From contig CAYYQL010000053.1 in NCBI GenBank assembly GCA_964473825.1, forward strand, positions 1 through 13,607: a DNA stretch of 13,607 nucleotides, given 5' to 3'. Position 1 is the first letter of the stretch; the number at the start of each line of letters is the position of its first letter. Shown one piece after another: positions 1 to 4,762 of this stretch. A program made the position numbers and the translations under genes. Origin of the DNA: an uncultured archaeon (GTDB lineage Archaea > Asgardarchaeota > Thorarchaeia > Thorarchaeales > Thorarchaeaceae). Under the pieces are notes generated by a model, which was given only the letters and a program-made list of their open reading frames with translations, did no database searches and was not told the origin of the DNA.

Positions 1-519
1 CCAAATATCGCAGAGCGTTGCCAGGTTCTCATTACTGACGACTGCCGCCCTCCTCTGAGTGAGCAAACCAACCTCCTTCACGCTCGGACGCCACAGATAG
101 TCCAAGACCGCCATGGAGATGGCAGCATCTCCCAGCAATGCAAGCACTCTGGCCATCTCAGGCACCATACTGATCTCCTCTAGACTCTCCAGGTCAACTG
201 CGGAGGTTTCGTTTCTCACGAAGTGAGCCTCAATCTCAAGGAACAGATTCTTGGTACTGAGCTGGAACATCGCAATCTTGAGAAGCTCATCATCTGCAAA
301 CTTGATATCCAATGTCTGTTCCAAAGTACTTCCCAGTTCGAACTCTATCTCTTGCATCATCTGAAGGATGTACCCCAATTGACTCTCCCAGCGGTCCAGT
401 TTGTCGAGAGTGCGTGTATTCTGCCGGGGAGTGACACTCCGGGTATGACGAACCGTTTCAGCAAGACCAGCGACCTTCGCCTGCAGGTCAATCGCAGACC
501 AAGCAAGGCTCTCCTTCAC
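1..519 (-). CDS. RNase III-like (Mini-III-type signature) nuclease-domain protein, 3' end runs off the window; not in ORF track
   Basis: Open frame from GTG at 519 to position 1 (173 codons, no stop): MKESLAWSAIDLQAKV...LEQTLDIKFADDELLKIAMFQLS...ARVLALLGDAAISMAVLDYLW...EVGLLTQRRAAVVSNENLATLCDIW. This parallels the RNase III pattern LExxLGYxFxDxxLLxxALTHxS...ERLEFLGDAVL...EGxLTxxRAxLVSNxxLA. The start overlaps the upstream stop (GTGA, 516-519). Confidence 0.8.
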   Translation of the reverse strand, partial: MKESLAWSAIDLQAKVAGLAETVRHTRSVTPRQNTRTLDKLDRWESQLGYILQMMQEIEFELGSTLEQTLDIKFADDELLKIAMFQLSTKNLFLEIEAHFVRNETSAVDLESLEEISMVPEMARVLALLGDAAISMAVLDYLWRPSVKEVGLLTQRRAAVVSNENLATLCDIW

Positions 520-1307
520 ATCAAGCCCTCTCCAGGGATGTAGTGGGTGACAGTCGTCTTCCGATCGATGTCACGTTGTTGAAACATCGCCTGAACACCA
601 TAGTCATTGGATAAGAGACAGAATGCGATACCAATGATGGGAGGTGCGAAGGAGAGGTCAAAGACCACATTGTTCTCAGTTATCTCTTCCAGTAGGATCT
701 TCTCAACATGGGCATAGGTGGACATGAGGTCGCCCGACTTTCCACCTTCGTAGTAGCCTACCACACTCTCAGGCAGTTCGTGCCAGACCTTCTCCCATCG
801 TTTCGTGACTCCATCGGGAACATAGCGTTCAAGACCCTTAGATACTCCCTTCCCGAATCTAGCTTTTTCTACAACTAAGACAAGGCGATTGTAATGAAAC
901 TCGGCATCCATGGCAAACCATCTCACCAGGGGGCGTGCATCGTCAGGTCGGGAGATAGAGGTCACGACTGCGGTCGGAAGAGTGACATTGAGCACACGCC
1001 TGACAGGCTGAATTGCTCGAGGATGCAACCGATAGATTCTCTCTTGTGATTCCTTCCTGCTGGTGATTATCCCCAAGGTCTCCAGATGTTTTGTGTTGTA
1101 GTAGAGTTTCGGATCGGTAACAACAACCTCCTCCGGATCAATCTCCTTACCATTCTCTTCTGCTGCAGCAATCATGGCATCCCTGATTTTGTCGCGCAGG
1201 TGATTTCCATTCTTAGGACCGGTCTCGAGCTCTTCGAGAATCACTCTCCTAGCTCGGACATTCTGAATCTCTCGCCGAATAACGTCATCTGCTGATTCCC
1301 AATACAT
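516..1307 (-). CDS. Winged-HTH transcription regulator with C-terminal CARF-like (Rossmann) domain
   Basis: N-terminal wHTH pattern (RRVILEELETGPKNGNHL...KLYYNTKHLETLGIITSRKESQERIYRL). The C-terminal half has CARF-like beta/alpha order: TAVVTSIS / RLVLVV / DLMSTYAHVEKIL / VVFDLSFAPPIIGIAFCLLSNDYG / VQAMF. The ORF track starts at 1349; ATG at 1307 is preferred because a GGAG lies about 10 nt upstream. Confidence 0.7.
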   Translation of the reverse strand: MYWESADDVIRREIQNVRARRVILEELETGPKNGNHLRDKIRDAMIAAAEENGKEIDPEEVVVTDPKLYYNTKHLETLGIITSRKESQERIYRLHPRAIQPVRRVLNVTLPTAVVTSISRPDDARPLVRWFAMDAEFHYNRLVLVVEKARFGKGVSKGLERYVPDGVTKRWEKVWHELPESVVGYYEGGKSGDLMSTYAHVEKILLEEITENNVVFDLSFAPPIIGIAFCLLSNDYGVQAMFQQRDIDRKTTVTHYIPGEGLM

Positions 1308-1465
1308 CTTCGGACAACTCCGACAATATAGAAGACCTACATATTTCATATAGATGTTATTCCTATCGACTGTTCTGGGTGTTACATACCTATTGCCCAG
1401 ATATTACCCTCGTAGTTCGCGTTCAGAAATCGCCCCCTAGAGGCCATTTGGAGGTGTTTCAGCAC

Positions 1466-1504
1466 TTGCATTTCAATGCAATGACTATGATACATATATA
1501 TGTA
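1466..1504. promoter_or_regulatory. Two palindromes in the divergent wHTH/actin intergenic region (candidate operators)
   Basis: TTGCATT-TC-AATGCAA (1466-1481) and the perfect 14-bp palindrome TACATATATATGTA (1491-1504). Confidence 0.35.
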
Positions 1505-1547
1505 AGATGTTTCTTGTACAGAAACGTCGAAAAATCGAGGGAAATCC

Positions 1548-1563
1548 CGACAATCCTTAAATA
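1548..1563 (+). promoter_or_regulatory. Putative archaeal BRE/TATA promoter of actin
   Basis: CTTAAATA at 1556-1563 preceded by CGACAAT, about 100 nt upstream of the actin ATG, implying a roughly 70-nt 5' UTR. Confidence 0.5.
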
Positions 1564-1659
1564 CGTCAGACCGTAACTTCCTGCCAGCACAGAGTTCTGA
1601 ATCTTCGGGTGAAGAATCGAAAAACTATCTTTGCATAAACAAGTAAGGACCGAAATAAA

Positions 1660-2799
1660 ATGGCTGAAGACGAGTTCCTAGGAGCTAAGCCCGTAGTCAT
1701 TGATAATGGCACGGGATTGAGCAAGAACGGGTACGCCGGGGAAGATCAGCCGAGGAGCGTCTGGCCGACGCTTATTGGTTATCCCCGGTACGAGAGTATC
1801 ATGACGGACGTAGACCACTACACCAGAGACTACTACATTGGTGAGGAGGCAATCAACCTCCGAGGTGTCTTACGTCTGGTCTATCCCATCACTCATGGGG
1901 TGATTGATGACTGGGATGCAATCGAGAAGATATGGTCGTATACATTCTACAACGACCTCAAGGTTGACCCCAGTGAAAATCCAGTGCTTCTGACCGAGGC
2001 ACCATTCAATCCACGTGAGAACAGGGAGCGCATGGCAAGCGTCATGTTTGACAACTTTGGAGCACCAGCAGTATATGTGGCCACTCAGGCAGTGCTGTCA
2101 CTGTACGCATCTGGTAGAACCACAGGCCTGGTCATCGACTCTGGTGACGGTGTGACACACATAGTCCCAATCTATGAGGGCTTTGCAATCACTCACGCCA
2201 TCAGAAGAATCGACCTAGCTGGAAGAGACATCACAGAGTACTTGCGCAGGTTGCTCAGGCAGAGGGGTTACTCCTTTGTGAGCGGCGCAGAGAAAGAGAT
2301 TGTGAGAGACGTAAAGGAGAAACTCTGTTACGTTGCCCTTGATCCTGAAAAGGAAAGGACCGTGGCAGACAAGGCAGGAGTCGACAAGCCCTACATGCTA
2401 CCTGATGGCGAAGTCATCACTGTGGGGGCAGAGAGATTCCAGGGTCCAGAGCTGTTCTTCAATCCAAGCGCCATTGGTCTCGACACCATACCACTCGACG
2501 AACACATCGTCGAATCAATCAAGGCGTGTGACGTTGACCTGCGACGTGACCTGTACGCAAACATTGTACTCTCAGGTGGTTCAACTATGTTCCCAGGCCT
2601 GAAGGAGCGGCTCCACAAGGAGATCACCGAACTGGTACCCGAGAACATCGAAGTACGAATCATCGCTCCACCTGAGCGCCAATACTCAGTCTGGATTGGA
2701 GGCAGCATTCTAGCCAGCCTCAAGACCTTCCAGAAGATGTGGGTGACTCGCAAGGAGTTTGAGGAAGCGGGACCAGAAGTCATTCATCGCTGTATCTAG
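1660..2799 (+). CDS. Actin (Asgard actin, Lokiactin-like)
   Basis: 379 aa, collinear with eukaryotic actin: [113 protein letters not shown], ending HRCI. Confidence 0.98.
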
Positions 2800-2816
2800 T
2801 TCAAACAACAAACTAT

Positions 2817-2856
2817 GAAGGTAGGGCCGCGAGCCCTCCTTCCTTCTCATTTTTCT
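2817..2856 (+). terminator. Hairpin plus pyrimidine/T tract after actin
   Basis: GAAGG-T-AGGGC / CGCGA loop / GCCCT-CCTTC (2817-2842), followed by CTTCTCATTTTTCT, 17 nt after the actin stop. Confidence 0.55.
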
Positions 2857-2891
2857 TAGACCGGCCTTGGTCTATCACATTCAACCGCATT

Positions 2892-3227
2892 CTACCCAGG
2901 ACAATAGATCTTACCTGGCGAGGGCTCTTCATACATGTCATCTCCATCACGAACGGGCATAAATGCAACCAGCAGTCCAATGAATGGAGAGAAAGCAATG
3001 CCGATGACAAAGTAGGCACTGATGAGTAGGCTAGCTTCAGCCTCGCTCACCAAGAATACCTCTCGGAGCACAGGAAGTGCGGGGCTGAGAAACGGCACAC
3101 CCAAAGGGGCCAACAACGTGCTCACCAAGACAATCTGAACCAATGAAGACTGTAGAGGAGTCCCATCCTCATTAACATCAAAGTCCGCACTAGTCCCAGA
3201 ACCACTTCTTTCTCGAGTCTGCCCCAT
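2892..3227 (-). pseudogene. Truncated MFS transporter (only TM1-TM2)
   Basis: LVSTLLAPLGVPFLSPALPVLREVFLVSEAEASLLISAYFVIGIAFSPFIGLL is a typical drug-exporter MFS N-terminus. The expected motif A (DRxGRR) and the remaining ~10 TMs are absent, and the ORF ends at 111 aa. Confidence 0.7.
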
Positions 3228-3318: not shown

Positions 3319-3915
3319 CTATTCAAGAGCTGAGAGAAACTCTTCCGTTTCAAATCCCTCTTCAATCAGCTCAATGTCTTGGACACCAACGCGTTCAGCA
3401 TCGTAGCTGCGGGCTATGATTGTTGCATCAAACTTCTCTCGTGCAGTGGCCTCTCGTCCTCTCCAGACATAGAGGTCATCCCATGCATCGAGAATGAAGA
3501 CATCATCGCTTTTCAGCGACTCTCGTGCCAGTGGAACCTCTGCATAATAGGTCTCATCAGCCTTTCGGTGTACTCTCCAAAGCCTGTAGTCGTGCTTCTC
3601 AATGTGAACTTTCCTGAGGATTCCCTCAGTGTCTTGATCAGTAATTTCGAAATTCGGGAACAGCGACTTGAACTCCTCAGGTTCATCGCCACCGTCGATA
3701 TGGTCTATGTCAGCATGTCCCCTTCTTGCTGTATCTCTCATAACGGCCTCAGCAGCCGTGAGGAATTTCTCATCCACGGATGAATCAGGCCCTATCCAGA
3801 GATATATCTTAGGACCTGTGTCAACAAGATAGCAGTCTCCGCGACCGAATGACCCAGGATGAGGTACGATGACCAGATTCCCTTTTTGAATGTGATAGAC
3901 TGTGAGTTCGGGCAT
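3319..3915 (-). CDS. Two-domain gelsolin (Asgard 2DGel-type actin regulator)
   Basis: Two gelsolin repeats: FGRGDCYLVDTGPKIYLWIGPDSSVDEK...GDEPEEFKSLF and LKSDDVFILDAWDDLYVWRGREATAREK...EEGFETEEFLSAL. The start is ATG 3915 (MPELTVYHI) or the upstream ATG 3942 given by the ORF track. Confidence 0.93.
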   Translation of the reverse strand: MPELTVYHIQKGNLVIVPHPGSFGRGDCYLVDTGPKIYLWIGPDSSVDEKFLTAAEAVMRDTARRGHADIDHIDGGDEPEEFKSLFPNFEITDQDTEGILRKVHIEKHDYRLWRVHRKADETYYAEVPLARESLKSDDVFILDAWDDLYVWRGREATAREKFDATIIARSYDAERVGVQDIELIEEGFETEEFLSALE

Positions 3916-4024
3916 AGAGGATTTGGAGCTGAACATAGTCATAAGTCATGTTAGTATAGTGTTTCGACGGAATCATCTGAAACCGTCCGAGAACTCCCGC
4001 CCTATTCGTTGGGAGGTGTTGGGG

Positions 4025-4762
4025 CTAATCGTCGGGGAACAAGAGGCTGCGTGTACGGTCTAAGATCTCGGTATATTCCGGTTGACCAGTTGCATAGACC
4101 CAAAGGAGCCAGTCGAAGATCTCTATTTCCTTGGGATCAGTTACGTCAGCTCGCACGAGCTGCTCGATCTTCCCCGCCCATTTGAGGCGCATAACCTCGG
4201 TATCCAAGAGCATATCTATAAGCTGCCTCATCTCGTCTTCTGAGAGGGGTAGATCAAATACTGGAAGAGCATTTCGGACTTCCTCTCGCACCGCACTCTC
4301 AAACTCCGCCGGATCGTAGTGTAGACCGAATGTGATGAAGTTCTCTGCGGTCCTGCGATAGTAGTCGGTTGTGCGCTTTCCTGTTCGTACTACGCCATAT
4401 TTGACAACAAACCCGCCATCTATCAATCTTGGCAGATGATGATAGACTTGGTTCTTTGTGAGAGGGGTATACTCCTCCTTTTCTTTGGCGAGTCGAAGAA
4501 GCTCATATACGGACAGCTCATTTCTATGGACGATTCGTTCGCGTATTATTCGTTCGCCTGACGCCTCATCATAAGACTCTTTGACCATCTTGTCTTCGAT
4601 TCCGTCGCGTAGCATCTGCAGTATCTGCAATCTGACAGGGTCCCGAAGAACAGCTGCCCTATCCTCATCACTGACAAAATCAACACGACGCATCGGCTTC
4701 CTACCTGCATCTGTTAGTTCAATACCTTCGATGCCATCAGGAACTGGGACCAATGCATTCAC
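4025..4762 (-). CDS. ArsR-like winged-HTH transcription regulator with helical C-terminal domain
   Basis: LRDPVRLQILQML...LSVYELL...TKNQVYHHLPRLIDGGFVVKYG...TDYYRRTA. There is a ~25-aa insertion between helix 2 and the HTH. Confidence 0.85.
   Translation of the reverse strand: MNALVPVPDGIEGIELTDAGRKPMRRVDFVSDEDRAAVLRDPVRLQILQMLRDGIEDKMVKESYDEASGERIIRERIVHRNELSVYELLRLAKEKEEYTPLTKNQVYHHLPRLIDGGFVVKYGVVRTGKRTTDYYRRTAENFITFGLHYDPAEFESAVREEVRNALPVFDLPLSEDEMRQLIDMLLDTEVMRLKWAGKIEQLVRADVTDPKEIEIFDWLLWVYATGQPEYTEILDRTRSLLFPDD

Follow-up and report, generated by a model that had tools for sequence, protein, structure and literature searches.

The stretch of DNA analysed here, referred to as the window at its full length of 13,607 nucleotides, is the start of contig CAYYQL010000053.1 within a 3.27-Mb, 95.7%-complete Thorarchaeota assembly (GCA_964473825.1). 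Translation of the open reading frames (ORFs) revealed two minus-strand genes between positions 1 and 1349. The upstream one encodes a protein with a winged helix-turn-helix (wHTH) domain and a CARF domain, and both this gene and its 263-amino-acid product are called X in the following. The second is an RNase III-domain gene, truncated by the contig end. On the other side of X, behind a shared intergenic region, a divergently transcribed actin gene is located; the genome of the window has no other Pfam Actin match. A preliminary description of this DNA, made from the letters alone, dealt with X and the RNase III gene; judged by gene order across the Asgard archaea, the older and more deeply conserved partner of X is the actin gene, which that description had missed. 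The features of the locus are collected in Table 1.

Table 1. Features of the X locus, in window coordinates (+, forward strand; -, reverse strand; dsRBD, double-stranded RNA-binding domain).
Feature	Position	Strand	Remarks
RNase III gene, first 173 codons	1..519	-	dsRBD-less; full length ~227 aa, here truncated by the contig end
GTGA stop/start overlap of X and the RNase III gene	516..519	-	+ strand reads 'tcac'
X	516..1307	-	263-aa wHTH-CARF protein of the CARF_m5 family; TGA stop at 516-518; most likely start is M15 of the 277-aa ORF
CARF (Rossmann-like) sensor domain of X	519..983	-	residues 109-263
Motif II equivalent DLSFAPP	639..659	-	residues 217-223 of X; Asp and Ser kept, Gly-Gly and basic residue lost
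Region with two Thorarchaeota-only segments, CARF domain	738..860	-	~residues 150-190; holds the invariant W175
Winged-helix DNA-binding domain of X, ArsR/SmtB-PadR type	984..1307	-	residues 1-108
Intergenic region shared by X and actin	1308..1659		352 bp
TATA-like element of the X promoter	1341..1361	-	~40 nt upstream of M15
Inverted repeat TCGAAAAATCGA, candidate operator	1527..1538	+	spacing to the downstream actin TATA box is fixed
Actin TATA box CTTAAATA	1556..1563	+	~100 nt upstream of the actin ATG
Actin gene	1660..2799	+	divergent from X; Pfam Actin E 1e-131

The longest ORF of X extends over 516-1349 and has 277 codons, and its M15 (window 1307) is the start in all 26 database homologues. 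The ATG at 1349 falls within the conserved TATA-like element upstream of M15. From these comparisons the start of X is most likely the one at 1307 and not the ATG at 1349; gene callers that choose the latter probably over-extend X by 14 N-terminal codons, which overlap the predicted TATA element.

The AlphaFold2 model of X, obtained with an alignment of the 26 homologues, is confident, with a predicted local distance difference test score (pLDDT) of 91.6 and a predicted template modelling score of 0.86. It was compared exhaustively with 48,161 PDB chains by VIA-align, and Foldseek was run alongside. The N-terminal domain (residues 1-108) is similar to the wHTH repressors CzrA, RosR, TubR, SmtB and PadR, at Z of about 9-10. 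For the remaining part of the protein the top 13 VIA-align ranks are all CARF domains, namely VC1899, Can2, Csm6, Cdn1, Card1, Csa3 and Cad1, with Z of 10-13.4 and 122-138 aligned residues, ahead of every other fold; Foldseek agrees on this domain (E 3e-5 to 1e-3, probability 1.00). The CARF-like fold that had been read from the C-terminal sequence is therefore real, and the model, both structural searches and a PADLOC profile bear out the proposed order of the two domains, wHTH followed by CARF, which is the reverse of that in Csa3. The most conserved stretch of X is a helix with the sequence VTDPKLY(F/Y)N, near-invariant over the Asgard families and with D65, Y69 and N71 invariant; it is taken to be the recognition helix.

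The PADLOC profile in question is PDLC01987 ('CARF_m5--CARF'). It matches residues 14-242 of X with an E-value of 8.2e-18 and, over its full length, an X orthologue from outside the Thorarchaeota with an E-value of 8.4e-60. Since the same profile recognizes both X and its distant orthologue, X is, by sequence similarity, a divergent member of the already catalogued minor CARF family CARF_m5, a name that is said to follow the CARF classification of Makarova et al. 2020. No Pfam family matched X above threshold, a PDB sequence search with the X profile gave nothing significant, and the relatives of X have only sub-threshold Pfam matches, to PadR, HTH_20, CARF_Card1 (0.017) and Csa3_N (0.035).

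In a quick maximum-likelihood tree, the X sequences are grouped by genus and family. A branch with 97% support in the Shimodaira-Hasegawa-like approximate likelihood ratio test of this quick tree separates the actin-linked orthologues from 15 weaker matches. The latter are wHTH-CARF paralogues of about 200-240 amino acids, several of them encoded beside RAMP, Cas4 and CARF_Card1 genes, and one paralogue linked to type III CRISPR matches the same CARF_m5 profile (E 3.7e-41). According to this tree, the actin-linked X proteins form a clade of their own, with CRISPR-associated regulators of equal architecture as relatives. Such paralogues were met at loci L101-L116 (e.g. L106:3001-3651, L103 and L105) in the families labelled f11, f15, f16, f21 and f22, where the neighbouring genes are of the RAMP, Cas4, Cas_NE0113/CARF_Card1 and Cas10-like types; by their sequences and surroundings they are likely the CRISPR-associated relatives of the actin-linked clade. 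The window itself carries a second wHTH gene (4025-4762), which adjoins a two-domain gelsolin gene (3319-3942) about 520 bp beyond actin. It was considered as a paralogue of X and ruled out, with an hhalign probability of 0.5%.

The distribution of X was established by a profile search of 400 Asgard genomes, 85 of which belong to the family of the window (Thorarchaeota). X is present in 78 of these 85, mostly as a single copy, and full-length orthologues were found in more than a dozen other families, including Hermodarchaeota, Baldrarchaeota and Frey/Jordarchaeia. Gene neighbourhoods were compared at about 90 loci, in which actin and RNase III were located by tblastn. Actin lies divergently upstream of X in every Thorarchaeota locus with enough flanking sequence (n=46). 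It is also the divergent neighbour of X in nine further families (f2, f3, f4, f5, f6, f14, f16, f28 and f29), Hermod-, Baldr- and Frey/Jordarchaeia among them, and in family f17 it is the co-directional gene downstream of X. The far-side neighbour of actin and the genes downstream of X vary between lineages. The interval between actin and X is free of inserted genes in ten families, and insertions recur on the downstream side of X. An unusually deep synteny is seen in Thor-, Hermod-, Frey- and Jordarchaeia (L007, L008, L002, L004, L063-L078), where genes for ComB (2-phosphosulfolactate phosphatase), CDP-alcohol phosphatidyltransferase, NTP transferase and Sua5 form a block downstream of X.

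In length, the intergenic region between X and actin ranges from 246 to 543 bp across all Thorarchaeota loci; the range in the other families is 116-561 bp. On the X side, most Thorarchaeota regions hold an ATATATA-type element at -31 to -44 from the X start. A box, TATRGAYGATATC, is present with 0-2 mismatches in the intergenic regions of four other families; in the window the plus strand at 1349-1361 reads TATAGATGTTATT, with two mismatches to this cross-family box, a match equalled by 2/100 shuffles. On the actin side, the reverse complement of the actin TATA box, TATTTAAG, occurs in 39 of 45 Thorarchaeota regions (shuffle maximum 7). An inverted repeat of the form CGA-W(4-6)-TCG stands 27-30 nt upstream of CTTAAAT in 11 of the 45 non-identical Thorarchaeota regions, that of the window included, compared with 0.07 in shuffles. 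Families f2 and f6 have palindromes of 15-17 bp in the same region, a length reached by 0/60 shuffles. Taken as sequence patterns, these repeats would fit an operator for a dimeric winged helix, without proving one.

The leader of the actin gene (window 1586-1659; e.g. L028:2580-2647 and L092:2656-2736) is 52-107 nt long, mostly 60-85 nt. Its start is conserved (AGCACAGAGT), and a Shine-Dalgarno-like sequence, GAGGACCGA, is located just before the actin ATG. A GAATCT-containing hairpin recurs in this leader, and single-sequence folds give small hairpins; the consensus structure computed from 19 Thorarchaeota loci contains no predicted pairs. An Rfam scan of positions 1-3000 gave no match, and a sigma-70 promoter and terminator scan, whose model is unsuited to archaea, stayed at chance level.

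The motif II equivalent of the CARF domain was compared in an alignment of 90 X orthologues, 45 from Thorarchaeota and 45 from other Asgard families. Outside Thorarchaeota, the canonical CARF motif II, which follows the fourth strand of the domain and here has the form D-[VLI]-[TS]-x-G-[TGS]-[RK], is present in 42 of 45 sequences, while a lysine or arginine at its last position is found in 0/45 Thorarchaeota copies. The DLSFAPP reading of the preliminary description is therefore a genuine change, shared by all 45 Thorarchaeota copies in its loss of the basic residue. The single sequence from f2, the sister family in the same order as Thorarchaeota, also lacks this residue. In addition, the Thorarchaeota proteins contain two CARF segments that are gapped in all other members, and the insert in their winged helix is longer than elsewhere. 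Because the pocket has lost a basic residue that is kept by its relatives, X of Thorarchaeota would be expected to sense some ligand that is not the cyclic oligoadenylate made by Cas10, or to sense none.

The explanation tentatively preferred here, held with somewhat less than even confidence, is that X may be a core transcription factor acting on the promoter region shared by actin and its own operon, its usual ligand exchanged or lost. We infer DNA binding and the regulatory target from four features: (i) the winged helix is of a repressor type; (ii) the putative recognition helix is near-invariant; (iii) the divergent arrangement is kept across Asgard classes; (iv) the repeats occupy a fixed position. 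Any dependence on a ligand is likewise presumed. Several points weigh against this explanation. The generic inverted-repeat test is significant only in f2 and f6, the best palindrome of the window being at chance level (14/60 shuffles); one operator motif common to all families was not found, and the box match of the window is marginal. With its altered motif II, the CARF domain of Thorarchaeota may bind no ligand at all. X occurs without actin within 3 kb in families f15, f18 and f19. Finally, the actin-X pair forms the edge of the larger conserved block running from ComB to Sua5, and because of this the adjacency may in part be inherited gene order rather than the outcome of selection for co-regulation.

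The last two of these points are also what speaks for a narrower role, in which X autoregulates only the X-RNase III operon and its position beside actin is inherited synteny of no regulatory meaning. The best Thorarchaeota match to the cross-family box agrees with it, as this match lies on the TATA region of X itself. However, actin and X have remained direct neighbours in ten families despite the repeated insertions downstream of X, and the inverted repeat at fixed position stands beside the TATA box of actin, not beside that of X. Autoregulation alone is on balance considered rather unlikely, though in probability it ranks next to the preferred explanation.

No cas genes were found within the window. 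The Cas10 palm domain is absent from the genome of the window and from 74 of 86 Thorarchaeota genomes (present in 12/86), as well as from three closed genomes carrying X (G320, G002 and G004). Searches of the window's genome for SMODS (CD-NTase), DAC and mCpol gave no match. The lack of a CRISPR context, as first noticed, thus extends from the window to the genome as far as Cas10 and these cyclases are concerned. The further suggestion of a role in defence, or of a toxin-antitoxin-like activity, fared worse, as both genes belong to the core of the family, where nearly every genome carries them as a single copy in a fixed gene order. To regard X and RNase III as a CRISPR-independent antiviral or toxin-antitoxin-like module would be in line with the type III CRISPR signalling from which CARF domains are best known, with the RAMP, Cas4 and CARF_Card1 genes adjoining the nearest paralogue clade of X, and with the patchiness of the RNase III family outside Thorarchaeota. 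Within Thorarchaeota, however, the pair is vertically inherited at a fixed chromosomal place; mobile-element or defence-island genes were not found nearby, none of the signal-making enzymes searched for was found in the genome, and the RNase III has no PADLOC match. A module of this kind is regarded as extremely improbable.

The RNase III gene was found in 80 of the 85 Thorarchaeota genomes, mostly in single copy. Its start in the window is the GTG at 517-519 on the minus strand, which overlaps the TGA of X, so the GTGA overlap reported at this place is exact. The pair is conserved in relatives, the RNase III gene being found directly after X in 46/46 Thorarchaeota loci with enough flanking sequence. 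A four-base NTGA overlap is present in about 22 of these 46 loci; most of the others have distances between -13 and +20 nt, and a few called RNase III starts are 51-87 nt downstream of X. As the RNase III gene directly follows X in all 46 loci, mostly overlapping or near-abutting, the tight junction is not due to chance. In complete Thorarchaeota loci (L002:7488-8978, L004:3970-5535), a protein of about 500 amino acids with HD and HD_assoc_2 domains converges on the RNase III gene; the window ends before that position.

The identity of the nuclease gene is clear from its fold. The model of a full-length orthologue is all-helical (pLDDT 93.7), and its 25 best structural matches in the VIA-align comparison are all RNase III domains (Z 8.9-14.2), as the preliminary description had read from the sequence. 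Class 1 bacterial enzymes, Dicer and a mitoribosomal RNase III-like protein outrank Mini-III (Z 7.9). Pfam PF00636 (Ribonuclease_3) is matched at 32.5-34.7 bits with a cut-off of 27, the lower value being that of the truncated window ORF, and no further RNase III match was found in the window's genome; with the NCBIfam model RNaseIII TIGR02191 the score is 36.6 bits, far below its cut-off of 166. Members of the family have no dsRBD. The RNase III domain is preceded by a two-helix N-terminal extension of 55-70 amino acids, and an insertion of about 33 amino acids separates the FQPSTKNLFLE element from the GD motif (alignment positions 94-128). The best PDB sequence match of the family is the RIIIDa domain of human Drosha (E 1.2e-13; PDB 6v5b, 9asm). 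In Drosha RIIIDa, too, inserted sequence separates the first conserved helix from the GD motif, for which common descent and convergence are both possible. Compared with the annotated record of E. coli rnc, the equivalents of D45 and E117 are invariant, and E41 and D114 are replaced family-wide by Ala and Thr, respectively. D45 and E117 are the most critical residues in mutagenesis of E. coli RNase III. Since their equivalents are kept in the alignment, catalytic activity is plausible.

The pair of X and RNase III is confined to Thorarchaeota, and 0/45 loci of other Asgard families have RNase III downstream of X. Outside Thorarchaeota, the same RNase III family is sporadic and stands alone, without X and in unrelated neighbourhoods, in families f8, f10, f11, f21 and f22. 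These stand-alone genes (L174-L185; e.g. L174:2998-3675 in a closed 4.36-Mb genome) belong to a minority of the genomes of the five families and keep the N-terminal extension. Because X occurs without RNase III, and the RNase III family without X, in other families, the Thorarchaeota operon, as far as gene content tells, unites two genes that function independently in other lineages. The original idea of a regulator that exists to control the nuclease is not supported by this distribution.

The close coupling within Thorarchaeota could also mean that the two proteins form a complex, a split CARF-plus-nuclease effector in which X supplies the sensor and the nucleic-acid-binding domain and gates RNA cleavage. 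The overlap or near-abutment conserved throughout the family is what would be expected for matched amounts of the two products; moreover, the nuclease has no dsRBD of its own, and the Thorarchaeota-only insertions in the CARF domain co-occur with the RNase III gene. On the other hand, the basic residue is also lost in f2, which is without RNase III, X orthologues do without RNase III in more than ten families, and the nuclease with the same N-terminal extension is found without X in the five families named above. Since each of them occurs alone, neither protein needs the other. The complex prediction for X with RNase III gave no verdict (score 0.00, mark 0.32) and is not evidence either way. 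Such an effector is judged improbable.

Under the preferred explanation, that of a core transcription factor on the shared promoter region, X would have been passed on vertically as a core gene in several Asgard lineages, and would descend from the wHTH-CARF regulators of type III CRISPR loci or be their sister group. A dimer of X would act on the short intergenic region in front of the sole actin gene and would control its own operon, probably actin too. In Thorarchaeota the operon would additionally have taken up the dsRBD-less RNase III gene, whose product would be translated in step with X via the stop/start overlap, and the CARF pocket, having lost its basic residue, would respond to a signal other than the product of Cas10, or to none. 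A bolder proposal goes further and is offered as a conjecture of low probability: the single actin gene of Asgard archaea might be controlled by a CARF regulator that senses a small molecule and was recruited from type III CRISPR signalling. In Thorarchaeota this regulator would have been rewired, its pocket being remodelled, and combined with a dsRBD-less RNase III of Drosha sequence affinity, adding a post-transcriptional layer such as processing of the conserved actin leader of 65-80 nt.

We know of no account of how the eukaryote-like cytoskeleton is regulated in Asgard archaea. The locus offers a candidate sequence-specific DNA binder with a ligand-sensor domain, fixed beside the only actin gene over many Asgard classes, and thereby a defined protein, together with about 350 bp of DNA, for testing. 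It also presents a CARF domain far from CRISPR immunity, in genomes without Cas10. Hermod-, Baldr- and Freyarchaeia have the canonical pocket and Thorarchaeota a remodelled one, and this natural contrast could bring to light a novel ligand of CARF domains or a function without any ligand. With the coupled nuclease, a core RNase III devoid of a dsRBD is added to the archaea, which to our knowledge are usually described as lacking RNase III. In literature searches on CARF, Asgard actin and Asgard RNase III no paper was found on the pairing of X, actin and RNase III. The closest one concerns a canonical rnc gene with a dsRBD located beside an Asgard Argonaute (PMC11217426).

Compared with the CARF_m5 family as a whole, X has the entire wHTH and CARF architecture as well as the sequence similarity in common. 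The differences relate to the Thorarchaeota clade, in which motif II is without its basic residue and its Gly-Gly and extra segments are present, and to the genomic setting, as the linkage of X is with actin and RNase III instead of the cas genes that accompany its CARF_m5 relatives in CRISPR loci.

Among characterized regulators, Csa3 is composed of the same two domains. Csa3a and Csa3b are transcription factors of Sulfolobales with the order CARF-wHTH and bind cyclic tetra-adenylate (cA4). The logic is presumably the same, in that a CARF sensor governs a DNA-binding winged helix, and the CARF domain of Csa3 (PDB 2wte, 6w11, 6wxq) superposes on that of X with Z 11.3 and a root-mean-square deviation of 3.1 over 130 residues. 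In X, however, the order is reversed, so that residues 1-135 of Csa3 align to residues 111-260 of X. In contrast to Csa3, X has no CRISPR neighbourhood, its genome has no Cas10 match, and the basic residue that contacts the ligand is absent. A precedent for a CARF regulator outside CRISPR immunity that controls genes of RNA metabolism is RtcR, the bacterial CARF-AAA+-HTH activator of the RNA-repair operon rtcBA. By description RtcR differs from X in being bacterial and in having the architecture of a sigma-54 AAA+ activator.

The nuclease was compared with two known types. Class 1 bacterial RNase III (Rnc; PDB 3o2r, 1o0w, 7r97, 1jfz) and Drosha RIIIDa match its fold with Z 12-14.2, and the D45 and E117 equivalents are common to class 1 and the Thorarchaeota family. 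In contrast to class 1, the Thorarchaeota enzymes are devoid of the dsRBD, have the two active-site replacements and carry the N-terminal helical extension. Mini-III (MrnC/YazC; PDB 4oun) is, like the Thorarchaeota family, a single RNase III domain without a dsRBD, whereas its fold match is lower (Z 7.9 versus 14.2 for class 1) and its length is about 140 amino acids versus about 227. The surplus of about 90 amino acids in the Thorarchaeota RNase III goes together with an N-terminal extension and an internal insertion, by which it is distinguished from Mini-III.

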